DNA of 64,000 bases from an uncultured Acidobacteriota bacterium (lineage in GTDB: Bacteria > Acidobacteriota > Thermoanaerobaculia > UBA5066): contig CAWIIN010000001.1 in assembly GCA_963836285.1 (NCBI GenBank), positions 353,967-417,966 of the forward strand, given 5' to 3'. Each line of letters opens with the position of its first letter. Position 1 is the stretch's first letter. Shown piece by piece: positions 1 to 63,953 of the stretch. The position numbers and the translations under genes were made by a program. The notes under the pieces are model-generated. The model saw only the letters and a list, made by a program, of their open reading frames with translations, was not told the DNA's origin and did not search any database.

Positions 1-1404
1 CGGGACGATCTCGTGCGCGATCCCGCGGGAGTCGAAGAAGCGCGCCGCGAGACGGCGGTATTTCGTCCCGACGCGGACGGGCTGCCCGTTCGGCTTGAAC
101 GTCTCGCCGGCCCGGCCGATGAGCGACAGCCGACACTCCCCGAAGGGCAGATCGACCGGCGTGAAGACGTCCTCGCCGGACTCGGCGACGCGGTCGCTTC
201 CGACGACGCCGAGGTCGGCGCCGCCGTGCGCGACGTAGGTCGGGACGTCGTCGTCCTTCAGAAGGAGAAGCTCGAATGCGCCGTCGGCCGATGGAACGAG
301 CAGCCGGCGCCCGTCCGGCTCGCCGAACACCGCTCCTCCCTGGCGCAGCGCCGCGAGTGTCTGCGCGAGAAGGCGCCCCTTCCCCACCGCGATGCGGAGG
401 GGCCGGGCGGCAGCCGCGGCGGACGCCGAGGAGGCCGCCGCGAGCGCCTCGAGGCCGATGCAGAACCCGAGCGCCGGCGCGGGCGTACCGAAGCGCGCGA
501 GCAGCGTGTCGTAGCGCCCGCCGGCGGCGACGATCCCCGCCGCCCCCGCGGCGTCCACGGCGAACGAGAGGCCGGTGTAGTACGGCGCATCCGGGGTCGC
601 CGCGACGTCGACGACGACCGACGCACCGGGACGGGCGGCGCGGGCCGCTGCGGCGGCGCGTCTCAGCTCCTCCGCCTGGCGCGCGAGGGCGGGAGCGGCG
701 AAGAGCTCCGAGGACGGGTCGAAGCCGGTCAGGAGCCCGGCGCCGAGCTCGCGAGCGGCCGGTGCGGCGGCGCCTCCGGCGACGAGAAGGGCCTCGAGGG
801 CCGAGACGCGTCGCCTCCGCACCTCGGCGAGAGCCGAGACGAGACGCGCGCCGTCTCCCGACGTGAGCGCGGGCGCGGCCGCGACGAGCAGCATCGGGAG
901 GAGGCCGGCGTAGCCGAGCGTGATGCGGAGCCGCTCGGCCGGAACGTCCTCGAGCGCGGAGAGGCACAGCCTGAGCATCTCCTCGTCGGCGTCGAAGCGC
1001 GCGTCCCCGTACCGTTCGGCTCCAACCTGCGCGAACTCCCGCGGTCGGCCGACGCCCGCCTCCTCGTCGCGCACGACGTCGCCCCGGTAGAAGAGCGAGA
1101 CGGCGCCCGTGATCTGGCCGAGGCGCGGCGCGACGACGCGCGCGGCCATTGGCGTGAAATCCGCGCGCAGCGCGAGGGTCTGGCCCTCGCGGTCGAGGAA
1201 GCGATAGAGGCGCTCATCACCCTCGGCCGTGACGCCCGTGTACGGGTCGGCATAGTCGAGGACGGGGAGGATGACCTCGCGCAGGCCGGCCGCGCGCAGG
1301 ACGTTCACGACGGCCTCCTCCGCGCCGCGCCGCCGGTCGGCCGCGTCGAAGAGGAGCGCCTGGACGCCCCGCGGCAGGTTCGGGTCGGGCCGACCGGCGC
1401 TCAC
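1..1404 (-). CDS. hisZ-hisG: HisZ–HisG fusion: ATP phosphoribosyltransferase regulatory subunit (HisRS-like catalytic domain lacking the anticodon-binding domain) fused through an Ala/Ser linker to short-form ATP phosphoribosyltransferase HisG. The 3' end is cut off by the window start.
   Basis: Manual minus-strand translation from a GTG at 1404 to position 1 gives one frame with no stop and high GC3. The motifs found, in order, are LALRADFTPMAAR, REFAQVG and GGRYD (HisRS/HisZ motifs 2 and 3), then the linker AASSASAAAARP, then HisG N-terminal motifs LRIAVGKGRL, LLLLKDDDVPTYVAHGGADLGVVGSDRV and LPFGECRLSLIG. The GTG start overlaps the aroDE stop as GTGA. The ORF table missed it because it runs off the edge. 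Confidence 0.7.
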   Translation of the reverse strand, partial: MSAGRPDPNLPRGVQALLFDAADRRRGAEEAVVNVLRAAGLREVILPVLDYADPYTGVTAEGDERLYRFLDREGQTLALRADFTPMAARVVAPRLGQITGAVSLFYRGDVVRDEEAGVGRPREFAQVGAERYGDARFDADEEMLRLCLSALEDVPAERLRITLGYAGLLPMLLVAAAPALTSGDGARLVSALAEVRRRRVSALEALLVAGGAAAPAARELGAGLLTGFDPSSELFAAPALARQAEELRRAAAAARAARPGASVVVDVAATPDAPYYTGLSFAVDAAGAAGIVAAGGRYDTLLARFGTPAPALGFCIGLEALAAASSASAAAAARPLRIAVGKGRLLAQTLAALRQGGAVFGEPDGRRLLVPSADGAFELLLLKDDDVPTYVAHGGADLGVVGSDRVAESGEDVFTPVDLPFGECRLSLIGRAGETFKPNGQPVRVGTKYRRLAARFFDSRGIAHEIVP

Positions 1405-2960
1405 GACGCGCTCTCCGCCGGGGCGCCGACCGGGGATTCTCCGAACGAGAGAAATGTGAGCCGGCGCTCGGGCGGGAGCCGCTCGAGAAGATCCGGCGGA
1501 CTCGTTTCGCGGCCGGTGAAGCGCGCGGCCTGACCGGCCGCCTGGAGGAGGAGCAGCTTCTGCCCGTCGACGACCCGGCAGCCCGCCTCGCGGGCGGCAC
1601 GCACGAGCTCCGTCCCTTCCGGTCGGTACGGCGCGTCGACGACGAGGACGCCGGACCGGAGGAGCTCCGCCGGACAGGGGACCGGATCTCCCGAACGCAG
1701 CCCGAGCGCCGTGGCGTTCACGATGACGAGCGGCACAGGCCACGTCGCGACAGATTTCCTTGAAAGGAAGAGGGCTCCCGTGGCCCTCGCCAGCTCTTCG
1801 CCACGCTCCGCCGTCCGGTTGGCAACGAGGACCTCCCACCCCTTTCTCAGAAGAATTTCCACCGCGACCCGGGCCGTGCCGCCCGCACCGAGGACCAGAG
1901 CCGGCCCGTGGCCCGCTTCCTCCGAGCGCTCCGGAATCACCCGCTCGAACGCGTCCCGGTCGGTGTTCGCCGAACGGAAGCGCGCGGGGGCGCCGGCGCC
2001 GGAAACGCGGACGAGGGTGTTGACGGCGTTCTCGTCCGCGTCCGCGAGGTGCGCGGCCTCCTGCTTGAACGGGATCGTGACGGAGGCGGCGACGAGCGGC
2101 AGGCCGAGCCGGTCGAGCCCGGCGACGAGGTCCGGAAGCTCTGCGCCGAGCGCGCGAAGGGCGAACGGCACGTAGAGCGAGTCCTGGCCGAGGGCCTCGA
2201 AATTCGCGTTGTGAAGAACGGGTGACAGCGAATGCGACACGCGGTCGCCGAGGAGCGCGAAGAGTCGCGCCACCCGGCGCGGGCGCCCGACGCCGTAGAC
2301 CTCGTCGAGGTCGCGCGCGAGAACCTGCCCAGGCGCGGTCGCGCGCCCCGGGACGAGAGCGCCGAAGGACAGCGCCCCGCCGAGATAGGGGCAGAGGACG
2401 CGCGTCGCGATCCCGGCCTCGCCCATCCCGAAGGCGGTGAGCCGCCCGTCCCGGTGCGTGGACTGCAGTTCGAGGAGCCGCAGGACGTCGGAGACGTCGT
2501 TCGGCGTCGCGACGAGCTTCACAAAGCGCGCGTCCGAAGAGAGCATTCGGGAAACGACGCCGTCCAGGTCGGCAGGGATGCCTTCAGGGTCATGGAGAGA
2601 AGAGATTCTCTTGGAGAGGGGTATGGCGGCGAGGCGCTGCCCGCTGTCCCGGCGAAACTCGACGTCCGCGAAATCGAAGCCGGCCGAGAGGGCACCTTCT
2701 AAGAAATCTCTCTCTTCATCTTCCGTCCCACGAAACGCGCCACCTTCGGGCTTCGACCGCACCGTCGCGATGAGCGTTCTCCCCGCGAACGCCGCGCGCA
2801 GCGCGGTGAACGCCGGCGCTTCCGTCATCGCGTCGAGGCGCAGCTCCACCGCGGCGCCCGGAGGCAGGGTCGCGGCTTCCTCCGCCGCGGCGAAGGCCTC
2901 GGCGTTCGTCGCGGGGGCGACGGAGGCGACGAGAAGCGTCTTCTCGGCGGTCAGGTCCAA
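1401..2960 (-). CDS. aroDE: bifunctional type I 3-dehydroquinate dehydratase / shikimate 5-dehydrogenase (AroD–AroE fusion)
   Basis: The N-terminal half has type I DHQase motifs (VELRLD, IATVRSKPEGG, VKLVATP, FGMGEAGIATRVL). The C-terminal half has AroE motifs (SLSPVLHNANFEALG, LVLGAGGTARAV). Confidence 0.85.
   Translation of the reverse strand: MDLTAEKTLLVASVAPATNAEAFAAAEEAATLPPGAAVELRLDAMTEAPAFTALRAAFAGRTLIATVRSKPEGGAFRGTEDEERDFLEGALSAGFDFADVEFRRDSGQRLAAIPLSKRISSLHDPEGIPADLDGVVSRMLSSDARFVKLVATPNDVSDVLRLLELQSTHRDGRLTAFGMGEAGIATRVLCPYLGGALSFGALVPGRATAPGQVLARDLDEVYGVGRPRRVARLFALLGDRVSHSLSPVLHNANFEALGQDSLYVPFALRALGAELPDLVAGLDRLGLPLVAASVTIPFKQEAAHLADADENAVNTLVRVSGAGAPARFRSANTDRDAFERVIPERSEEAGHGPALVLGAGGTARVAVEILLRKGWEVLVANRTAERGEELARATGALFLSRKSVATWPVPLVIVNATALGLRSGDPVPCPAELLRSGVLVVDAPYRPEGTELVRAAREAGCRVVDGQKLLLLQAAGQAARFTGRETSPPDLLERLPPERRLTFLSFGESPVGAPAESAS
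2694..2725 (-). repeat. solo copy of the dispersed AT-rich repeat, in-frame inside aroDE (encodes ..EDEERDFLEG..). A related copy at 2594–2619 encodes SKRISSLHD.
   Basis: Contains GATTTCTTAGAAGGTG with a rare TTA codon. It is a local GC drop in an otherwise ~70% GC gene. Confidence 0.6.
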
Positions 2961-3136
2961 AACGAAAACCCCTCCGGTACCGGAGGGGCTCGGGTGACTT
3001 CATGAACGACCCTGCGCCTCCGGACCTCGATCGGGCCGGCGGCGCGCTGCGCTGCCGGCTTACGTGTGGTGGCTGTGCCAGTGGCGCGAAACCGACATCA
3101 TGGAACCGGCATTGGACCCCGACGGCCCCCGGCCTG

Positions 3137-4642
3137 TCAAGCCTTCCTCTTCCAGCGGACGCCCTGGGGCGTGTCCTCGAGGACGATGCCCTTGCCGGCG
3201 AGCTCGTCCCGGATCGCATCGGCGGCCTTGAAATCCCGGGCCTTCTTGGCGGCTTTCCGGGCCTCGATGCGCTCCAGGATCCACGGTCCGTCGGAAGGAG
3301 GAGAGGAGCAAGACTCGGAGGAGGATTTCTTCGAAGGTGAAGACGGCTGGGCGCTGGCGGCCGTGCCCAGCATGACGCCGAAGATGTCGCCCGCGACGCC
3401 GCGGAGGAGGCCGCGGGCGGCGGACGCATCCGCCGCGCTGAGGCGGCCGGCCTCGAGGTCCACGTTCGTCGCCTTCACGAACGAGAACAGCGCCCCGAGG
3501 GCGCCGGCGGTGTTGAGGTCGTCTTCGAGGGCCGAGAAAACCGCGGTGCGCGCCGCCGCAACCCGTCCCGCGAATCCCCCTCCCGCGCCCTCTTCACCAT
3601 TCGAAGAAATCCTCTTCTCTTCCGTCTCCTCTTCTCTCTCTCGCTCCGAAAGCCTGAGATCCAGCGAATCCAGCCGCTCGAGCGCCGACGCCGCGCCCCT
3701 GAGCCCCTCGAACGTGAAGTTGAGCTTCTGGCGGTACGGAACGGACTGGAAGAGATAGCGGATCGCGCGGGGCGTGTAGCCCTTTTCGACGAGTGCCGGC
3801 AGCGTGAAGAAATTGCCCTTGCTCTTCGACATCTTCTCGCCGTCCACGATCAGGTGCTCGGCGTGGAGCCAGGTCCTCACGAAGGGCTTCCCCGTCGCGC
3901 CCTCGCTCTGGGCGATCTCGTTCTCGTGGTGCGGGAAGATGTTGTCAACGGCGCCGGTGTGAATGTCGAAGGTCTCGCCGAGGTACTTCATCGACATCGC
4001 GCTGCACTCGAGGTGCCAGCCCGGCCGACCGCGCCCGAGCTCGGTCGTCCAGGTCGCGGACGCGGGCTCGCCTTCCTTGGCCGCCTTCCACACGGCGAAG
4101 TCCCGGACGTCCTCCTTCTCGTACTCGTCGTCGGCGACCCGGGCGCCGCGCTTGACGGCCGTCAGGTCGATCTTCGAGAGCTTCCCGTAGCCGGGGAACG
4201 TCGCGATGCGGAACCAGAAGGAGCCCTCGCTCTCGTACGTGTGGCCGCGCGCGGCGAGCTTCTTCACGATCTCGACCATCTCGGGGATGTGGTCGGTCGC
4301 GCGCGGGTACGCCGCCGCCGGATGGACGCCGAGCGCGTTCAGATCCTCGAAGAAGGTCGCGACGTGCGGCTCCGTGAACTCCCGGAGCGGAAGGCCGGCC
4401 GCGACCGCGCCACGGATCGTCTTGTCGTCGATGTCCGTCAGGTTCATGACCTGCCTGACCTCGTAGCCGAGCGCACGCAGGACGCGACACAGGACGTCCT
4501 CCCACACGAACGTCCGGAGGTTTCCGATGTGGACGCGGTCGTAGACCGTCGGGCCGCACGTATAGAGGCCGACCTTCCCCGGCACGAGCGGCCGAAACTC
4601 CTCCAGCGACCGGGTCAGCGTGTTGTGGAGGCGGAGCGGCAC
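3137..4642 (-). CDS. cysS: cysteine--tRNA ligase
   Basis: HIGH-type class I motifs (CGPTVYDRVHIGN) and KMSKS. The N-terminus MPLRLHNTLTRS from a GTG at 4642 matches CysS starts. The ORF-table start at 4744 is probably an over-extension. The C-terminal region is longer than usual. Confidence 0.9.
   Translation of the reverse strand: MPLRLHNTLTRSLEEFRPLVPGKVGLYTCGPTVYDRVHIGNLRTFVWEDVLCRVLRALGYEVRQVMNLTDIDDKTIRGAVAAGLPLREFTEPHVATFFEDLNALGVHPAAAYPRATDHIPEMVEIVKKLAARGHTYESEGSFWFRIATFPGYGKLSKIDLTAVKRGARVADDEYEKEDVRDFAVWKAAKEGEPASATWTTELGRGRPGWHLECSAMSMKYLGETFDIHTGAVDNIFPHHENEIAQSEGATGKPFVRTWLHAEHLIVDGEKMSKSKGNFFTLPALVEKGYTPRAIRYLFQSVPYRQKLNFTFEGLRGAASALERLDSLDLRLSEREREEETEEKRISSNGEEGAGGGFAGRVAAARTAVFSALEDDLNTAGALGALFSFVKATNVDLEAGRLSAADASAARGLLRGVAGDIFGVMLGTAASAQPSSPSKKSSSESCSSPPSDGPWILERIEARKAAKKARDFKAADAIRDELAGKGIVLEDTPQGVRWKRKA
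3595..3642 (-). repeat. solo copy of the dispersed repeat in-frame inside cysS (encodes SEREREEETEEKRISSNGEEG, a roughly 20-aa insertion relative to E. coli CysS between LERL and DDxFNT)
   Basis: GAGAAGAGGATTTCTTCGAATGGTGAAGAGGG preceded by a polypurine run. It is a low-GC island. Confidence 0.6.
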
Positions 4643-4722
4643 CGGGCGGGATTCTCCGGCATCCGGGCTCCGGCCGCCACCGGGGCGGCCCGGAACCCCT
4701 GTGCTATAAGGCGCGAACGCGC

Positions 4723-5625
4723 ATGTTCCGTACGCCCGCGGCACCGCCTCTCATCCTCCTCGTCGACGACGATCCGTACCAGGCGGAGGTCGCGTCCTAC
4801 ATCGCGTACGAGCTCGGCTGCGACTTCGAGAGTGCGCTGTCCGGTACGGAGGCTCTCCAGAAGGTGGACGCGCGCCGGCCCGATGTCGTCCTCCTGGATG
4901 TCCGCATGCCCGATCTCTCGGGATACGAAGTCTGCCGCCGCATCAAGACCGCCGCCGCGACCGCGGGGACGCAGGTCATCTTCGTCACGGCGCGCACCGA
5001 GGAGGAGGACCTCCTCCAGGGCTTCGAGGCGCTCGCGAACGACTACGTCACGAAGCCCTTCTCGGCGCGCGAGCTGAAGGCCCGCGTGAAGAACGCGCTG
5101 CGCGTCAAGCAGCTCGTGGACGCCCTGCAGGCCCGAGCCGCCATTCTCGAGCTCGAGCAGGAGATCGCGTCGCGCCTCGACGACGAGGGCATCTCCGGCG
5201 AAGAGATGCGGGCGCACCTTCTCGTCCCCGTCCTCGACAGGATCGCGTCCGTGTTCGGCGCGGACGGCGCGACCCTGCACGTCCGCAGGCCGGGCGTCGC
5301 CGAGCTCCACGCCGCGACGTCGACGACCTGGCCGGGGGGCGCGCCGCCGTCCTACGTCGCGGCACTCGCGCTCGACGCCGATCCGAGGTTCGGTCGCGCG
5401 CCGCGCCTCGCGGGCGAGCAGGACGCCGAATGGACGATGGCCGCCGCGCCTCTCTTCGCGGGAAGCGAGCTGATCGGGACTCTGCGCATCCACCGCCGGA
5501 GCCCGGCGCCGGCTCCGGGGGCGTCGCACGAGCTCGAGCACCTGCTCGACTTCTCGGGACACTTCGGGCGCGCCCTCCGCCGCGTTCAGGTCCTGGACGA
5601 GCTGCGGGCGAAGGCCGGGGCCTGA
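4723..5625 (+). CDS. response regulator with an N-terminal receiver domain and a C-terminal GAF-like domain, with no DNA-binding output domain
   Basis: LLVDDDP...D(V)...TKPF CheY-like motifs. The C-terminal half resembles a GAF domain. It is divergent from cysS across an 80-bp spacer. Confidence 0.75.
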   Translation: MFRTPAAPPLILLVDDDPYQAEVASYIAYELGCDFESALSGTEALQKVDARRPDVVLLDVRMPDLSGYEVCRRIKTAAATAGTQVIFVTARTEEEDLLQGFEALANDYVTKPFSARELKARVKNALRVKQLVDALQARAAILELEQEIASRLDDEGISGEEMRAHLLVPVLDRIASVFGADGATLHVRRPGVAELHAATSTTWPGGAPPSYVAALALDADPRFGRAPRLAGEQDAEWTMAAAPLFAGSELIGTLRIHRRSPAPAPGASHELEHLLDFSGHFGRALRRVQVLDELRAKAGA

Positions 5626-9347: not shown

Positions 9348-9370
9348 CGCCGCGCGAAGCGCGGCGCTGA
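9348..9370 (+). terminator. GC hairpin (AGCGCCGCG-cgaag-CGCGGCGCT) immediately after the receiver gene stop
   Basis: Perfect 9-bp stem read in the sequence. Confidence 0.5.
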
Positions 9371-9408
9371 GGGGAGAGAAGAGAAGTTTCTTAGAAGGTC
9401 ATAGGGCC
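9371..9408 (+). repeat. dispersed repeat, F-orientation copy (GGGGAGAGAAGAGAAGTTTCTTAGAAGGTCATAGGGCC)
   Basis: Polypurine arm plus TTTCTTAGAAGGT core. It is paired with an inverted copy at 9487–9534. Confidence 0.7.
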
Positions 9409-9455
9409 GGAGGCCAGGCCGCGACGACTGGCCGACGGCGCGCGCCCGCCTCGCC

Positions 9456-9495
9456 GCAAAAGGAAGAGGCCCCGGTCTCCCGGGGCCCCTCTTCA
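9456..9495 (-). terminator. intrinsic terminator of rplQ / alpha operon (stem GAAGAGGGGCCCCGG / CCGGGGCCTCTTC followed by CTTTTG on the minus strand)
   Basis: Hairpin plus T-tract 45 nt downstream of the rplQ stop. Confidence 0.65.
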
Positions 9496-9534
9496 CCTTC
9501 TAAGAAAATCCTCTTCTTCGTGCTCTTCGGACCC
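9487..9534 (-). repeat. dispersed repeat, inverted copy (CCCTCTTCACCTTCTAAGAAAATCCTCTTCTTCGTGCTCTTCGGACCC)
   Basis: It is the reverse complement of the F core. Its GTGCTCTTCGGAC tail recurs at 56641 and 63941. Confidence 0.7.
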
Positions 9535-9540
9535 TGCCGA

Positions 9541-10176
9541 CTAGCTCCCGACCTTCCGGTGGCCGCCGCCGTGGGTGCCGCCGCCCTTCGGGCCGCCGCC
9601 GCCCTTCGGGCCCTTGATCTTCGCGGGCTTCGGCTTCTCGACGGGCTTGGCCTTCTTCTCGGCTTCGCCCTCGCCGCCCTCGGCCTTCTTCTCGTCCTTC
9701 TCGCCCTTCTCCTCGCCGCCCTTGCCGCCGACGAGCTTCTTCGCCCTCTCGAGGAGAGAGGTCTTCTTCTCCTCGGCCGCCTTCGCGGCAACCTTCTTCT
9801 CGGCCTGGCGCTGCGCGAAATCGAAGTCGATGAACTCGAGGATCGCCATCTCGGCGCCGTCACCGGGACGGCGGCCGAGCTTGAGGATCCGGGTGTAGCC
9901 GCCGGCGCGCTCCTTGAAGCGCGGGGCGATGTCCTCGAAGAGCTTCTTGACCGTGACGGCCTCGGGGATCGTCTTCAGGGCGAGCCGGCGCGCGTGGAGG
10001 CCGCCCCGCTTCCCGAGCGTGACCATCTTCTCGATGAGCGGCCGGAGGTCCTTCGCCTTCGGGAGCGTGGTCTGGATCCGTTCGTGCGTGATGAGGGACG
10101 AAAGCTGGTTCCGGAACAGCGACTTGCGGTGCGCCGTCGTCCGGCCGAGCTTGCGGCCCGCGCGGTTGTGCTGCAT
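9541..10176 (-). CDS. rplQ: 50S ribosomal protein L17 with a roughly 85-aa Lys/Glu/Gly-rich C-terminal extension
   Basis: N-terminus [24 protein letters not shown]. The tail is ...[38 protein letters not shown]. Confidence 0.9.
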
Positions 10177-11932: not shown

Positions 11933-11979
11933 AAATCCCGGGTGGAAAAGACCGGGGATTTCCTAGAAGGTAAGAGGGG
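11933..11979 (+). repeat. hairpin (AAATCCCGG...CCGGGGATTT) fused to an F-type repeat copy (GGGGATTTCCTAGAAGGTAAGAGGGG) in the rpsK–rpsD spacer
   Basis: Read in the sequence. It is paired with an inverted copy at 12033–12059. Confidence 0.6.
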
Positions 11980-12032: not shown

Positions 12033-12059
12033 CATTCTTCACACTCGAAGAAAGAACGG
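12033..12059 (-). repeat. dispersed repeat, inverted variant (CATTCTTCACACTCGAAGAAAGAACGG)
   Basis: CTCGAAGAAA variant of the core. The same variant is seen at 16968, 36148 and 3601. Confidence 0.55.
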
Positions 12060-16661: not shown

Positions 16662-17012
16662 TTACGCCCCCTCGACGATTTCGACGAGGTGGCGGACCTT
16701 GTGGATCTGGCCGCGGAGGGCCGGGGTGTCCGGGCGGACGACCTCCTGCCGGATGCGGCGGAGGCCGAGGCCGAACAGCGTCTGCTTCTGGTCGACGGGC
16801 GCGCAGATGCCCGACTTCACCTGGCGAATGCGGACAGTTCCGGATGATTTCTGCTTCGGAGCGGCCGCCTTCGCGGCCGCCGGGGGCTGCTTAGAAGGCG
16901 CGTGAGAGGCGCTCGCGGCCGCTTCGCCACCGCCGCGAGGCTTCGCACCTGCAGCCTGCTCGGGACCACTCGAAGAAATCTTCTCTTTCTCTTTCTTCTT
17001 CTCTTCAGTCAT
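16662..17012 (-). CDS. rpmD: 50S ribosomal protein L30 with a roughly 55-aa low-complexity N-terminal extension
   Basis: L30 core TVRIRQVKSGIC...LGLRRI. The ATG overlaps the rpsE stop (TGATG). The first 15 codons ([16 protein letters not shown]) are encoded by a repeat copy. Confidence 0.8.
   Translation of the reverse strand: MTEEKKKEKEKISSSGPEQAAGAKPRGGGEAAASASHAPSKQPPAAAKAAAPKQKSSGTVRIRQVKSGICAPVDQKQTLFGLGLRRIRQEVVRPDTPALRGQIHKVRHLVEIVEGA
16964..17012 (-). repeat. dispersed repeat copy supplying the 5' end and start codon of rpmD (ATGACTGAAGAGAAGAAGAAAGAGAAAGAGAAGATTTCTTCGAGTGGTCCC on the minus strand). A partial copy lies at 16886–16900.
   Basis: Polypurine arm plus GATTTCTTCGAGTGG core. 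It is a low-GC island. Confidence 0.6.
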
Positions 17013-17665
17013 CAGACCTTCTCCGTGGCGGCCTCGGCTGGCGGGGCCGCGGGAGTCGCCGTCGCGGGCTCGGCCACCTTCGCCTCGCCGTTGCCGACAC
17101 CGCGGGCCTTCGCGATCGTCTCCTCGAGCTGGAGGTGCAGGAGCGCGTCGAACGTGGCCTTCACGACGTTGTGCGGATTCGTCGTGCCGAGCGACTTCGT
17201 GAGGATGTTCTGGACGCCCGCCGATTCGAGGACGGCTCGAACCGCGCCACCGGCGATGACGCCCGTGCCCTCGGAGGCCGGCTTCAGCATGACGCGCCCG
17301 GCGCCGTAGTGCCCGACGATCGGGTGCGGGATCGTCTTGCCCTTGAGCGGGACCTTGATCATCTTCTTCTTGGCCATCTCGATTCCCTTCTTGATGGCCA
17401 TGGGGACTTCCTTCGCCTTGCCCGCGCCGTAGCCGACGCGGCCGTGGCCGTCGCCGACGACGACGAGCGCCGAGAAGGAGAAGTTCTTGCCGCCCTTGAC
17501 GACCTTCGTCACGCGGTTGATGTGCACGACGTGGTCGATGAGGTCGGCGCCCGCGCGGCCCTCACCGAGGGCGCCGGCGGGACGGGGCGGAGGCCCGCCG
17601 GGGCCGGAGCGGCCGCCGGGGCGGTTTCCACGCGGGGGACGGTTGATCGGCGCGTTGCTGCTCAA
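17012..17665 (-). CDS. rpsE: 30S ribosomal protein S5 (extended N- and C-termini)
   Basis: S5 dsRBD and C-terminal domain with Gly/Pro/Arg-rich N-terminal and Ala/Pro-rich C-terminal extensions. Confidence 0.93.
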
Positions 17666-18606: not shown

Positions 18607-19005
18607 TCACCACACCGTGCAGACGACCTCGCCGCCGACGCCGCGCTTTTTCGCGTCGTTGCCGGTGAGGAGGCCTTGCGAGGTGGACACGATGGCGACG
18701 CCGAGGCCGCCGAGGACCTCGGGGAGCTCGTCCTTGCCCTTGTAGAGACGGCGGCCAGGCTTGCTGGACCGCGTGAGACCGTGGATGACCGGGTTGCCCG
18801 TGTCGTCGTACTTGAGGTACAGACGCAGGAGGCTCCCGCCGCGGTCGTCCATGACCTTGAAGTTCTTGATGTAGCCCTCGTCCTTGAGGATCCGGGCGAG
18901 CTCCACCTTGAAACGCGACGACGGGATGTCGGCCTTCTCGTGGCGGGCCGAGATGGCGTTCCTCAGGCGGGTCAGGAGGTCGGAGACGGGATCGGTGACG
19001 TTCAT
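18607..19005 (-). CDS. rpsH: 30S ribosomal protein S8
   Basis: MNVTDPVSDLLTRLRNA... Confidence 0.95.
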   Translation of the reverse strand: MNVTDPVSDLLTRLRNAISARHEKADIPSSRFKVELARILKDEGYIKNFKVMDDRGGSLLRLYLKYDDTGNPVIHGLTRSSKPGRRLYKGKDELPEVLGGLGVAIVSTSQGLLTGNDAKKRGVGGEVVCTVW

Positions 19006-20921: not shown

Positions 20922-21410
20922 CTACTTCTTCTTGCTCTTCTTCGGGGCCGCGGACTTGACCTTCGAGGGTCCGGCCGTCTTGCCCTTCGGTCCCGCGGAT
21001 TTCTTAGAAGGTGAATGGGCCCTCGCCGCCGCGCCCGCCGTCTTCTTCCCCGTGGCCTTCGCGGCCGCCGCGCGCTTCTTGGCGCCCTTGCCGCTGGCCG
21101 CCGTCGCGCCGGCATGGCCCTTCGGCTTCGGCGTGGCCGCGCTCTTCTCATTCGCAGAACTCTTCTCTTCGCGCCCCTCGGTCTGCGCCGGCGTGACCTC
21201 GTGCGCCGCCGCCGCCGCCGTCTCCGCGGCTCCCATGTGCTGCGCGGTCTTGAGGCGGGCGATGTCCTTGCGGAGCTGCTTGATCTTCATGGGGTTCTCG
21301 AGCTGGCCCGTCGCCTTCTGGAGGCGCAGGGTGAAGAGGGACTGCGTCCACTCCTTCACCTTCGCGGCCTTCTCGTCGGGGGACCAGTCGAGCATCGCCT
21401 GGATCTTCAT
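20922..21410 (-). CDS. rpmC: 50S ribosomal protein L29 with a roughly 100-aa Lys/Ala-rich C-terminal extension
   Basis: L29 core [14 protein letters not shown]...[10 protein letters not shown]. The tail is ...[19 protein letters not shown]...KSKKK and contains a repeat copy at 20995–21019. Confidence 0.85.
20995..21019 (+). repeat. solo repeat copy (GCGGATTTCTTAGAAGGTGAATGGG) in-frame in the rpmC tail (encodes HSPSKKS)
   Basis: Core motif read in the sequence. Confidence 0.55.
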
Positions 21411-26407: not shown

Positions 26408-26432
26408 CTTTCTTCTTAGAAGGTGAAGAGGG
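26408..26432 (+). repeat. dispersed repeat F copy (CTTTCTTCTTAGAAGGTGAAGAGGG) in the S10 leader / tuf–rpsJ spacer
   Basis: It is paired with an inverted variant at 26474–26503. Confidence 0.65.
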
Positions 26433-26473
26433 CGGCGGGCCCGTCGGTGCATTTCAGGTCAGCGTGTCGTTGC

Positions 26474-26503
26474 GTTCTCTCTTTCAGAAGAAAATCCGAA
26501 AAC
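26474..26503 (-). repeat. dispersed repeat, inverted variant (GTTCTCTCTTTCAGAAGAAAATCCGAAAACC)
   Basis: Its reverse complement, GGATTTTCTTCTGAAAGAGAGAAC, matches the F consensus. Confidence 0.6.
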
Positions 26504-33040: not shown

Positions 33041-33963
33041 CGAGGGTCCCCCAAAAGCGCTCGATCATACAGGGGGGCGTCCTCGCCCCGCGCGAGCGCG
33101 GTTCGAACGCGCCGGACGATGCGGTACACCTCCGGGCGCCCGATCTTCACGCCCGGGCCCCTCTCCTCGACCCTCGCGAGCGTCGCCCACGCGAGCGCGA
33201 CCGGGAGCGCCGTGAACTCCACGATCCCGGCGGTGGCGCCCGCCGCGCGGAGGGTGTCGATGTACTCCCCCGCGACGCCCAGGTCGCGGCGGGCAAGGGC
33301 GAAGACGTCCCCGCGCGGGACGCCGGCCGGCAGGTAGCGCCGTCCCTCGGCCGCGTCCTCGTCGGAGTCTTTCAGGATGTTGACGAGCTGGAGCGCCTCC
33401 CCGAACGCCCGAGCCCGGGAGCGGAGGTCCATGGCCACGGTTCGAAGAGAAGATTCTTCGAGTAGGAAGAGCTCCGTGAGCAGCTCTCCCACGATCCCTG
33501 CCACCGTGTAGCAGTAGGCCTTGAGGTCGTCGAGAGTGTCGAGGACGAGGCCCCCGTCACCGGTTCTTGCGACGAACCGCGCCATCCCTTCCGCCGATCG
33601 GACCACGTGGCTTCGGAGGATCGCCGCCCCTTCGGGCCGCAGCGCGGCGAACGCCTCGAAGACGAACGGCGTCTCGGAGATGAGCTCGCGGTAACCCGCG
33701 TGGCGCGAAACGCCGGCCTGCGTCCAGACCTGCCCGAGCCGCTCCGCCTCCGTCCGTGTCCCGTTCTTCAGAAGAAATCTGAAATCTCCCAGCGCCGCGA
33801 TGCGGGCCGCGGGGGGCCAGTGCGTCGCGTCCTCGAACGTGTCGGCGATGCGGAAGAGGAGGTACGCGACGGCGACCTCCCGCCGCGTCGGCTCGGGGAG
33901 CGGAGGGATCGAGAGGGCGAACGTGCGACTCGTCTTCTCGAGGAGGTCGAGGAGCTCGGGCAC
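33037..33963 (-). CDS. squalene/phytoene synthase family protein (HpnD/HpnC/CrtB-like)
   Basis: YCYTVAGIVGELLT and LQLVNILKDSDEDAAEGRRYLP (DxxxD regions). The GTG start at 33963 is chosen to avoid overlap with the divergent gene. It overlaps the dxs start by 4 nt. It contains a repeat copy at 33764–33788. Confidence 0.75.
   Translation of the reverse strand: MPELLDLLEKTSRTFALSIPPLPEPTRREVAVAYLLFRIADTFEDATHWPPAARIAALGDFRFLLKNGTRTEAERLGQVWTQAGVSRHAGYRELISETPFVFEAFAALRPEGAAILRSHVVRSAEGMARFVARTGDGGLVLDTLDDLKAYCYTVAGIVGELLTELFLLEESSLRTVAMDLRSRARAFGEALQLVNILKDSDEDAAEGRRYLPAGVPRGDVFALARRDLGVAGEYIDTLRAAGATAGIVEFTALPVALAWATLARVEERGPGVKIGRPEVYRIVRRVRTALARGEDAPLYDRALLGDPR
33764..33788 (-). repeat. solo repeat copy in-frame in the squalene-synthase-family gene (minus strand GGAGATTTCAGATTTCTTCTGAAGAAC, encodes GDFRFLLKN)
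   Basis: GATTTCTTCTGAAGAA variant of the core. Confidence 0.5.
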
Positions 33964-35803: not shown

Positions 35804-36003
35804 GGTCCTTCTTCAAGGGAGGGAGTCCCCGACTCCCCCCTTTGGATCCCCCCGTATGGGCAGTGCCGGCAGCCCGATCCGCAGCAGCTGCCGTAGCGCA
35901 GGAGATACGTCGTCGTGAAGACCTCGTAGCCGGTCTTCGGGTCGATGTACGTGTCCTTCCCCTCGGCGAGCGCCTTCGCGTGCAGCCGGTCGATCTCGTC
36001 CAC
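35797..36003 (-). CDS. small Cys-rich protein (DUF5522-like; CCGSGCRHCPY motif)
   Basis: 68 aa with YGSCCGSGCRHCPYG. It converges on the esterase gene with a 7-nt overlap. Confidence 0.6.
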   Translation of the reverse strand: MDEIDRLHAKALAEGKDTYIDPKTGYEVFTTTYLLRYGSCCGSGCRHCPYGGIQRGESGTPSLEEGPQ

Positions 36004-36067
36004 GGGGGGATTGTCCGCTGAAGACGATGAAAACGAAGAGGACCGCCTTGCGGCGGCCCAGGGGATT

Positions 36068-36096
36068 GAAGATTTTCTTAGAAAGTAATAGGGCTG
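36068..36096 (+). repeat. dispersed repeat F copy (GAAGATTTTCTTAGAAAGTAATAGGGCTGG) preceded by a polypurine run
   Basis: It is paired with 36148–36170. Confidence 0.65.
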
Positions 36097-36147
36097 GAGA
36101 GGCGCCGCGGCTCATGGCGAGACGCGTGGATGACGTCGCCCTCCTGA

Positions 36148-36196
36148 CCACTCGAAGAAAAGGGGGATCCAAAGGGGGGAGCCGCAGGCTCCCCCC
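36148..36196 (-). terminator. rpoC intrinsic terminator (GGGGGGAGCC-tgc-GGCTCCCCCC then a T-rich run) whose T-tract merges into an inverted repeat copy (CCACTCGAAGAAAAGGGGGATCC)
   Basis: 10-bp GC stem read in the sequence 20 nt after the rpoC stop. Confidence 0.7.
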
Positions 36197-36214
36197 TATG
36201 CAGAATCCTCGTTC

Positions 36215-44769: not shown

Positions 44770-44824
44770 GAAAAGAAGGAGAGGGAAACGAGAGGGAAGA
44801 GAAAATCTGCTTAGAAGGGGTCAC
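44770..44824 (+). repeat. dispersed repeat F copy with a 40-nt polypurine arm (…GAGGGAAGAGAAAATCTGCTTAGAAGGGGTCAC) in the rplL–rpoB spacer
   Basis: It is paired with 44875–44908. Confidence 0.6.
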
Positions 44825-44874
44825 AGCCGCGCCGTCTCCCCTTTCGAGCTGCGCCCGCCCGGGGCTCCGCCGGG

Positions 44875-44908
44875 GCTCTTCTCTTTTTTCCTTCTAAGAG
44901 AATCCCCC
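44875..44908 (-). repeat. dispersed repeat, inverted copy (GCTCTTCTCTTTTTTCCTTCTAAGAGAATCCCCC)
   Basis: CCTTCTAAGA core plus a polypyrimidine arm. Confidence 0.6.
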
Positions 44909-56495: not shown

Positions 56496-56560
56496 GAACG
56501 AGAGAAAAGGAAATAGAGAGAGGAAAAGACAAAGAGAAGAGGAAGGTTTCTTAGACGGTG
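56495..56560 (+). repeat. dispersed repeat F copy with a 45-nt polypurine tract (GAGAACGAGAGAAAAGGAAATAGAGAGAGGAAAAGACAAAGAGAAGAGGAAGGTTTCTTAGACGGTG) starting at the coaE stop
   Basis: It is paired with 56620–56653. Confidence 0.65.
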
Positions 56561-56619
56561 TGTGTGCGCACGACGCTCGATGGAGGCCGGGGCGCTACCC
56601 GCCGCTCCCGCCTCACTCA

Positions 56620-56653
56620 CGCTTCTAAGAGGTCCGAACGTGCTCTTCGAGAG
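56620..56653 (-). repeat. dispersed repeat, inverted copy (CGCTTCTAAGAGGTCCGAACGTGCTCTTCGAGAG) abutting the rdgB stop
   Basis: CTTCTAAGA core plus the GTGCTCTTCG tail shared with 9521 and 63941. Confidence 0.6.
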
Positions 56654-63821: not shown

Positions 63822-63862
63822 AGGAAGAAGAGAAGCGAAGATTTTCTTTGAAGGTGAATGAG
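63821..63862 (+). repeat. dispersed repeat F copy (AAGGAAGAAGAGAAGCGAAGATTTTCTTTGAAGGTGAATGAG) starting at the purB stop
   Basis: It is paired with 63919–63953. A GC hairpin plus TTTTCC (63880–63920) lies between them. Confidence 0.65.
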
Positions 63863-63918
63863 ATCGGGGCCCGCGGCACGGCAATCGCCGAGCGGCGCCG
63901 CCCGCGCCGAGCCCTTTT

Positions 63919-63953
63919 CCCCCTCAAAGAAATCGCTCTGGTGCTCTTCGGAC
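63919..63953 (-). repeat. dispersed repeat, inverted copy (CCCCCTCAAAGAAATCGCTCTGGTGCTCTTCGGAC)
   Basis: Reverse complement of the F core plus the GTGCTCTTCGGAC tail. Confidence 0.6.

Follow-up and report, generated by a model that had tools for sequence, protein, structure and literature searches.

The 64-kb window analyzed here (the whole stretch of contig CAWIIN010000001.1, from an uncultured Acidobacteriota bacterium) carries a real, lineage-specific repeat family that exists at the level of DNA in a high-GC clade of the Thermoanaerobaculia. Its arms face each other as inverted pairs, between genes and also in frame within housekeeping genes such as cysS and aroDE and the ribosomal-protein genes rpmD and rpmC. 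An earlier note on this DNA had taken positions 3595–3642, within cysS, for one copy of such a repeat, and this identification holds: the 15-mer TTCGAAGAAATCCTC occurs four times in the window with up to 2 mismatches, against 0.19 occurrences expected, and a profile search finds 18 arms, 12 of them scoring at least 12 bits. The 3595–3642 sequence is a local GC trough (45%) within a window of ~68% GC. Most copies share this property, which the note had ascribed to each, but those in rpmC and in a squalene-synthase-family gene are not among the troughs of 45% or less. The squalene-synthase-family copy is itself only a weak look-alike: the stretch in question (GGAGATTTCAGATTTCTTCTGAAGAACGG) scores under the threshold of the profile, and no partner is visible for it. 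In cysS, aroDE, rpmD and rpmC the open reading frame (ORF) is left unbroken, as the note had observed.

By its CysS homologues the window belongs to Thermoanaerobaculia. A CysS protein identical to that of the window (P0001) is present in ENA/NCBI metagenome assemblies, and a metagenome scan with CysS gave at least five close relatives among the matches listed. Loci of relatives, ~21 kb each, were gathered by exact-protein look-ups. The arm profile (nhmmer) was built from the copies visible in the window and then rebuilt from 60 arms of related genomes. Its threshold of 12 bits yields no match in 155 other loci, which total 2.03 Mb and of which many are of similar GC. At this threshold, the 14 loci of genomes with CysS at least 78% identical to that of the window have arm densities of 1.6–5.6 per 10 kb, and a relative at 69% CysS identity has a single match. 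A generic repeat finder did not recover the family from the whole window, its output being overwhelmed by chance matches in GC-rich sequence; a GC-trough scan and the nhmmer profiles succeeded. Scanning the window against Rfam at gathering thresholds returned five tRNAs only and no family matching the repeat, and a literature search found no account of repeats in Thermoanaerobaculia. Among viral contigs, a 20-mer of the repeat has no match and a 17-mer has 22 single matches; these are confined to contigs of 32–57% GC, and are therefore consistent with chance and give no viral link.

Each arm spans ~25–45 nt. It is made up of a core, CACCTTCNAAGAAA, an inner end, CCCTCTTC, and a CT (or GA) tail that is prone to slippage. 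Most of the information content is held by the 14-nt core, which is preceded on its 5′ side by CCCT(C/A)TT and followed on its 3′ side by a pyrimidine-rich, G-poor tail of variable length. On either strand, a complete unit reads as a GA-rich tail, GATTTTCTTAGAAGGTGAAGAGGG, a spacer of 40–280 nt, CCCTCTTCACCTTCTAAGAAAATC, and a CT-rich tail. The spacers are unconserved between units and can be native coding sequence. The same DNA core is found intergenically and within genes, on both strands and in several frames. When read in the GA sense it encodes DFLEG, ISLKVN or ISSNGEEG, and in the CT sense SPSKKS or HLLRKSS; the predicted arm-derived peptides include EEKRISSNGEEG and SSPSKKSSSE.

The copies inside genes had been described as solo. 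Instead, the arms of cysS, aroDE, rpmD and rpmC all have partners (Table 1), and every one of the seven profile-scored adjacent pairs in the window is inward-facing; the other arms have weaker partners, which were picked out by eye. Of 91 adjacent arm pairs in 11 genomes, 64 face inward and 27 have one of the three remaining orientations. The region 9368–9536 is predicted to fold as a long hairpin (z = −5.4 and −4.8 on its two strands), and the two cysS arms to pair across ~240 nt of intervening coding sequence (z = −6.0). Since the arms pair, the element is palindromic, and the comparison with Rickettsia palindromic elements (RPEs) that the note had drawn is apt in outcome. We also considered an invertible segment flipped by site-specific recombination between the inverted arms, and rejected it because inversion would destroy essential genes.

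The clearest added segments are in cysS (3137–4744, minus strand). Between LERL and EDDLNT the window's CysS has 48 residues and E. coli CysRS has 27; site 1 thus adds ~21 residues, in agreement with the addition of about 20 that had been proposed for the peptide SEREREEETEEKRISSNGEEG. The site-2 arm adds ~15 residues, and the ~240 nt that separate the two sites encode the native helical bundle. Both segments lie at identical positions in relatives of 78–90% CysS identity and are absent at 67–68%. The orthologue alignment suggested in the earlier note therefore shows them to be clade-specific, and its second suggested check, mapping onto structure, gave a concordant result. In an AlphaFold2 model of CysS, the predicted local distance difference test score (pLDDT) drops below 50 at residues 345–354 and 427–449, which are the two arm segments. 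These low-confidence stretches sit between confident helices, either side of the helical-bundle (DALR_2) domain, and the model thus places the arm segments in probable inter-domain linkers. The sites vary among relatives: site 2 is missing in L082 and replaced by another repeat in L167, and site 1 is truncated in L037 and doubled in L165 and P0035. In a relative of 72% CysS identity (L168), a GA core, GGTTTTTCTTTGAAAGTG, encodes a native GFSLKVEE helix. Separately, the cysS genes of L167, L165, P0061, P0068, P0071 and P0077 carry another in-frame insertion that adjoins or replaces site 2 (alignment columns 486–512); this is a tandem unit of ~15 residues (LTGVSATGAVDTLTPA), unrelated to the arm family.

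The situation in aroDE is different. The note had read EDEERDFLEG, with its TTA codon, as an in-frame insertion; both the peptide and the TTA codon are present, but the arm is an overprint. The segment EDEERDFLEGAL aligns without gaps to AGEAQRLISKAL, GPEARSILSRAL and ASEASALLGAAL of arm-less orthologues, which have AGEAQRLISK, GPEARSILSR and ASEASALLGA opposite EDEERDFLEG, and the Pfam DHquinase_I match has no extra length. The arm is absent in L164, L166, L167 and L037. Over codons 61–120, the arm-pair region, aroDE of L001 and L165 resembles that of L161; elsewhere it resembles that of L164. This mosaic fits allelic transfer or, alternatively, arm conservation combined with divergence in the arm-less lineages. 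Downstream of aroDE (window 1–1400; 13235–14863 in L161) lies a gene with tRNA-synt_His and HisG Pfam domains and a product of ~542 aa, an apparent hisZ–hisG fusion that opens a tightly overlapping his operon. In L003 cysS (~11047) and L191 aroDE (2683–3126) there is a frame break or split gene call near the arm positions. Assembly indels at the arms are a possible cause, and such indels would mislead gene callers.

The syntenic his–aro–cysS region of the relatives carries further arms in hisD (at two sites), in hisA and in an anthranilate-synthase-like gene. In hisA, an arm-less relative has VEAALAS at the place where the GA core encodes VEDFLEG, and FAALLAE where the CT core encodes FIHLLRK. 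Both cores are length-neutral, and hisA gains length only from a poly-Ser CT tail of a few to ~30 residues. This tail behaves as a microsatellite, its poly-Ser run ranging from 0 to ~30 residues among relatives (L071, ~18889–19000, compared with other loci). At hisD site 2 both arms overlay native codons. At hisD site 1 a whole GA–spacer–CT unit adds 31–45 residues in some genomes, and the relative at 69% CysS identity has the CT core only, with length unchanged. From these sequence comparisons, an arm either adds codons or overwrites native codons that are similar to it.

Ribosomal proteins are lengthened in the same way. The 116-aa ORF of rpmD has its L30 domain at residues 60–110, and the unit (GA arm, spacer and CT arm) forms an N-terminal extension of ~55 residues. 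This extension must be translated, because there is no in-frame ATG, GTG or TTG between codons 1 and 65; codon 1 overlaps the rpsE stop codon (ATGA). Close relatives with cores ~90% identical have a 69-aa L30 without the extension, and others have two GA arms. The copy had been credited with the first 15 codons of rpmD together with the ATG. The GA arm does occupy codons 2–16, but comparison with the empty site of L192 (ATG AGC GAG AAG AAG AAA GAA ACG GCT CCG AAG CAG) identifies the ATG and the MSEKK codons as native, and the filled and empty DNA junctions differ by ~130 nt. The native sequence at this site is already arm-like, with APKQ/GCTCCGAAGCAG resembling CCTTCTAAGCAG and EKKKE resembling the GA tail. 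An apparent rpsE–rpmD spacer of 154 nt in L193 is not real; a run of N flanked by a duplicated rpsE end (3814–3910) marks it as a scaffolding artefact. In rpmC (20922–21410, 162 aa), whose L29 domain occupies residues 10–58, the C-terminal tail does encode the predicted HSPSKKS. The two tail arms lie ~130 nt apart, and L192 has the same pair. Long A/K/E/G-rich extensions beyond the Pfam domains are also seen in L17 (rplQ, 9541–10176, 211 aa), L29 (162 aa) and S5 (rpsE, 17012–17665, 217 aa), and the L17 ORF of L165 is called at 309 aa, reading through the downstream arm pair.

The arms are conserved as nucleotides. Over 302 cysS columns with a conserved residue, 9.5% of third positions are A or T; at the arm codons ATT TCT the fraction is 90–100%, and TCT TCA CCT TCN AAG AAA TCY is kept in nine of the ten genomes with a site-2 arm. 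An explanation at the protein level alone is thereby excluded, and the core must be either constrained or subject to continual homogenisation. The earlier note had named orthologues with the same peptides on unrelated DNA as what would refute its reading, and that refutation fails; what orthologues carry is the same DNA, including ATT, TCT, TCA, CCT and AAA. Arm positions are orthologous in cysS, aroDE, hisD and hisA across genomes of 78–90% CysS identity, and motif strength at the same sites is graded, with none at 67% CysS identity, the core only at ~70%, and full tailed arms at 78% and above. A sub-variant, CCATTCGAAG (TAG changed to TCG plus one inserted base; peptide ISSNGEEG), recurs in cysS, in hisD site 1 and in the rplQ tail of different genomes, with a near variant, CCACTCGAAG, downstream of rpoC. 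Tandem arms occur in L165, P0035, P0128 and P0141. The rpsK–rpsD spacer is filled in the window and in L163 (155–170 extra nt) and empty in L161 and L162, and relatives differ likewise in the presence of units at hisD site 1 and in the rplQ 3′ region. Together, these presence/absence differences and a derived sub-variant common to unrelated genes point to copying between loci.

Between genes, units lie along the minus-strand str–S10–spc–alpha ribosomal gene clusters, rpoBC and tRNA cluster that the window carries, with aroDE and cysS at its left end (Table 1). Spacers of intergenic units contain GC-rich terminator-like hairpins. At the rplQ 3′ end, the inner end of the right arm together with 9459–9500 forms such a hairpin, GAAGAGGGGCCCCGG-GAGA-CCGGGGCCTCTTC followed by CTTTT. 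Here L166 and L167 have a plain hairpin of 44–52 nt, and the window, L161–L163 and L071 have a similar hairpin bracketed by arms; in the alignment the arm cores are conserved and the spacer is not. Stem changes among genomes are compensatory (CCCCGGG/CCGGGG vs CCGCGG/CCGCGG; L163, L071), which supports this hairpin being functional. A second motif, a G/C hairpin followed by TTTGGATCCCCC, occurs at 35809–35852, just after a plus-strand esterase-like gene, and inverted at 36162–36205, just after rpoC; the two copies are 82% complementary over 44 nt, and the motif has the look of a common terminator module, separate from the arm family. The GA arm (AGAAGGTGA) resembles a Shine–Dalgarno sequence and the CT arm (CACCTTCT) an anti-Shine–Dalgarno sequence, by comparison with the 16S 3′ end; mimicry was dropped as an explanation because neither rpsJ, rpoB nor other downstream genes have the arms at their start codons.

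Table 1. Arms and arm-like stretches in the window, in order of position.
Feature	Position	Strand	Remarks
aroDE partner arm (weak), SKRISSLHD	2591..2615	-	overlies native K-x-I-x-S-x-H-D motif
aroDE arm, EDEERDFLEGA	2691..2729	+	codon overprint, length unchanged relative to arm-less orthologues
cysS site-2 arm, SSPSKKSSSES	3303..3348	-	CT-sense in mRNA; inverted partner of 3585..3642
cysS site-1 arm	3585..3642	+	CT-rich strand on +; GA arm in mRNA, encodes REREEETEEKRISSNGEEG; CCATTCGAAG sub-variant
Left arm, intergenic pair of convergent response-regulator gene and rplQ	9373..9407	-	
Right arm, response-regulator/rplQ intergenic pair	9484..9530	+	
rpsK-rpsD spacer arm	11944..11979	-	within 155-170 nt segment
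rpsK-rpsD spacer partner arm	12033..12056	+	reads TTCTTTCTTCGAGTGTGAAGAATG on minus strand
rpmD partner CT arm, codons 37-42 (SHAPSKQ)	16890..16905	-	
rpmD GA arm, codons 2-16 (TEEKKKEKEKISSSG)	16961..17009	+	
rpmC C-terminal tail CT arm (HSPSKKS)	20997..21021	-	
rpmC tail partner GA arm	21141..21170	+	minus strand reads GAAGAGAAGAGTTCTGCGAATGAGAAGAGC, encodes 10 residues
tuf-rpsJ spacer arm	26412..26435	-	
tuf-rpsJ spacer weak partner arm	26473..26497	+	
Doubtful arm-like stretch, DFRFLLKN, SQS_PSY-family gene	33761..33789	-	below threshold, partnerless
Arm downstream of rpoC	36055..36093	-	
Partner arm downstream of rpoC	36139..36164	+	minus strand reads CCCTTTTCTTCGAGTGGTCAGGAGGG
rplL-rpoB spacer arm	44790..44830	-	
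rplL-rpoB spacer partner arm	44886..44908	+	adjoins CCCCGG...CCGGGG hairpin
Intergenic arm, long CT tail	56524..56566	-	
Weak partner of 56524..56566 arm	56614..56634	+	
Arm just downstream of adenylosuccinate-lyase gene (purB)	63824..63861	-	
Partner of 63824..63861 arm	63909..63934	+	

The explanation we tentatively prefer, with a confidence somewhat short of even, is an old, clade-specific foldback (inverted-repeat) family that has spread by copying of arms or units between loci through recombination. Arms or whole units would be copied by homology- or microhomology-guided recombination (ectopic gene conversion), and not by cut-and-paste transposition. The local sequence would then decide the outcome of a copy: codons are added in hisD site 1, at the N-terminus of L30, in the tail of L29 and in the two cysS linkers, and similar native codons are overwritten in aroDE and, among relatives, in hisD site 2 and the cores of hisA. 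Within genes, only stop-free variants and frames would survive. Transcription in either direction would let the arms pair into a long hairpin, and at operon ends the inner arm ends are fused to terminator-like hairpins with the form of an intrinsic terminator. The core would be kept at the nucleotide level by a trans-acting reader, or because copies are repeatedly homogenised. Split arms, overprints and microhomology at the sites fit recombinational copying better than transposition. Several points weigh against this explanation. Spacers are non-homologous between copies and are native coding sequence in cysS, aroDE and hisA, a poor fit to insertion of a single unit. Solo arms are rare, although independent conversion of arms predicts them, and the long-term conservation of the core is unexpected for a decaying selfish element. 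Neither a target-site duplication nor a sharp terminus is seen at the filled and empty rpsK–rpsD and rpsE–rpmD sites, a test that divergence limits; these comparisons give only GA-rich or APKQ-like microhomology. No transposase or REP-associated tyrosine transposase (RAYT) turned up in the gene tables of the 64-kb window and the ~21-kb relative loci, no whole-genome search having been made. Partner arms are no more alike than non-partners over all pairs of ten genomes, and pairing-specific selection is thus not demonstrated. The copying mechanism, its recombinational step included, and any function are inferences. Covariation between the two cysS arms was also tried, giving p = 0.58 for the whole arm and p ~0.006 for a 25-nt core, the latter weakened by shared ancestry. 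The site-1 arms of the window and L161 are possibly paralogous (L165 carries both types in tandem). Given the shared ancestry, this possible paralogy and the null result of the general test, pair-specific co-evolution is not claimed.

Among the alternatives, a selected cis-signal is possible but clearly less probable than recombinational copying. The core would be read by a host protein or RNA, or the hairpin would act as RNA or single-stranded DNA in termination, processing, mRNA stability or nucleoid organisation, and the signal would be installed where needed, including in the coding sequence of tightly packed operons. This would account for the conservation of core nucleotides, A/T third positions included, where synonymous sites should be saturated, for the concentration of information in CACCTTCNAAGAAA, for the near-invariant pairing geometry, and for overprints, which require no insertion. 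Units also sit at operon ends and junctions (rplQ 3′, rpoC 3′, rplL–rpoB, tuf–rpsJ, rpsK–rpsD, purB 3′), fused to terminator-like hairpins with covarying stems. However, there is no evident need for such a signal inside cysS, aroDE, hisA or hisD, no Rfam family matches, and copies are dispensable in close relatives (the 69-aa L30, the empty rpsK–rpsD spacer, L082 cysS site 2, and the aroDE arm in L164, L166, L167 and L037). Tandem duplications and variable tails resemble repeat dynamics, and partner arms lack pair-specific covariation. A more radical proposal, which we regard as rather unlikely, makes CACCTTCNAAGAAA a trans-recognised signal installed in inverted pairs around arbitrary host DNA, native segments of essential genes included, by a drive of recombinational or templated type, be it allelic replacement, recombination resembling cassette exchange, or a bias in uptake. 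Such a signal would be of a new kind, bracketing DNA genome-wide and rewriting codons where they stand, and would count neither as a transposon nor as an uptake sequence of the classical sort. Classical MITEs (miniature transposable elements with inverted repeats) or REPINs seem improbable. As whole non-autonomous units moved by a transposase or RAYT encoded elsewhere, they would explain arms that act as terminal inverted repeats, small units of high copy number and no coding capacity, and whole-unit presence/absence differences, and in-frame MITE insertions are documented for RPE, ERIC and BOX (PMC10969869). Yet target-site duplications are lacking at the sites compared, interiors are non-homologous between copies, native codons are overlaid without added length, no GTAG or CGTC tag is present, and the outer ends are variable simple-sequence tails and not defined termini. 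Split arms in genes would have to be remnants of two insertions; in four genes or more, native protein segments lie between the arms, and independent half-losses predict inward orientation in 1 of 4 cases per gene. A drive like that behind DNA uptake sequences, or another recombination bias, under which DNA with the motif is preferentially imported or kept and the motif builds up in place by mutation and allelic replacement, both inside and outside coding sequence, appears quite improbable too. It fits the length-neutral overprints where native sequence was already motif-like, the graded motif strength across relatives (67%, ~70% and at least 78% CysS identity), the inverted pairs at terminators, and the aroDE arm-pair segment of L001 and L165, whose phylogenetic affinity differs from that of the rest of the gene as allelic transfer would produce. 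Uptake needs single motifs only, whereas nearly all arms are in inward pairs, even within genes; there are genuine insertions of 45–170 nt, tandem arms and long tails; known uptake sequences are denser than the ~2–5 arms per 10 kb observed here; and the recurrence of one two-change sub-variant in unrelated genes favours copying over independent mutation. Finally, ordinary low-complexity linkers or tails (E/K-rich or S/P-rich) that are alike by chance, or an assembly artefact, are extremely improbable. The peptides are of low complexity and lie in linkers and in extensions of ribosomal proteins, such extensions being common in this phylum, but the same DNA core occurs both in and between genes on both strands and in several frames, its codon choice is strongly atypical for host genes and conserved between genomes, the 2.03 Mb of other loci contain none, and the core is present in independent short-read and long-read assemblies.

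The family shares features with several known systems. As in the uptake signal sequences (USS) of Haemophilus and the DNA uptake sequences (DUS) of Neisseria, a clade-specific core of ~10–14 nt occurs in coding and non-coding DNA, in tolerated peptide frames, can be acquired in place without length change, and forms inverted pairs at terminators, as is typical of both DUS and USS. Those are single motifs at about one per kb, without long simple-sequence tails, insertions of 45–170 nt or tandem copies. Like mycobacterial interspersed repetitive units (MIRUs), the arms lodge between operon genes with frames that overlap neighbouring stop and start codons (here the rpsE–rpmD ATGA overlap), but MIRUs are direct tandem repeats, not inverted pairs, and do not lie within conserved enzymes. 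The repeat resembles MITEs (Correia/NEMIS, ERIC, BOX, Nezha) in being short, non-coding and high-copy, with inward complementary arms, hairpins and units of ~90–340 bp that have no coding capacity, co-transcribed with flanking genes close to terminators and operon junctions; MITEs are known to give in-frame fusions on occasion. It differs in the lack of a target-site duplication at rpsK–rpsD and rpsE–rpmD and of defined termini, in the unrelated or native coding spacers of the window pairs, with no shared interior, in overprinting, and in having no known parent insertion sequence. Repetitive extragenic palindromes (REPs) are each a palindrome with a GTAG or CGTC tag and are almost wholly extragenic (PMC3733652). 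REP/BIME and REPIN–RAYT systems share short, high-copy inverted doublets at transcription-unit ends, with the doublet as the natural unit; the present arms are tagless and often intragenic, and their consensus, CCCTCTTCACCTTCTAAGAAAATC plus a CT tail, has self-complementarity only in TTC-N3-GAA.

The comparison with RPEs is the closest in outcome. RPEs are palindromic repeats found between genes and in frame in unrelated housekeeping genes, whose ORFs stay intact and gain peptides that lie outside the folded core (PMC10969869). Of the proposal that the present repeat mirrors them, the in-frame residence, the added peptides and the palindromic structure stand. No feature indicates common descent with the Rickettsia families, and the arms often overlay or flank native sequence in place of an element interior. 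In cysS, rpmD and rpmC the repeat likewise resides in frame and encodes peptides beyond the folded core (for cysS, as judged from the predicted model), and both families are retained at orthologous sites in related species. However, RPEs are whole units of ~100–150 bp with a conserved interior, block-inserted in AT-rich, obligate intracellular Alphaproteobacteria, whereas here conservation is confined to the arms, arbitrary or native coding sequence makes up the spacer, and cores can replace codons length-neutrally. The L30 extension and hisD site 1 are block-like, but the arms of cysS, aroDE and hisA flank or overlay native sequence. The present host belongs to an Acidobacteriota lineage of ~69% GC, and no sequence relationship is evident, an RPE library not having been compared. 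Our best reading is that the repeat is RPE- and MITE-like in outcome and a member of no described family.

Until now, palindromic repeats lying in frame within housekeeping genes have mostly been regarded as peculiar to Rickettsia. A like outcome in free-living, high-GC Acidobacteriota suggests that repeats may reshape proteins by this route more generally; the proteins concerned here are an aminoacyl-tRNA synthetase, L30 and L29 and, in relatives, enzymes of histidine biosynthesis. There are also practical consequences, as some long-read assemblies have frameshifts or split gene calls at the arms, and annotated ribosomal proteins are lengthened. Standard MITE biology leaves three features unexplained, namely native segments flanked by arms, length-neutral overwriting of codons, and a core conserved at saturated synonymous sites. 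Because of them, the many available Thermoanaerobaculia genomes can serve to test both how the repeat spreads and whether a trans-acting factor reads the core.

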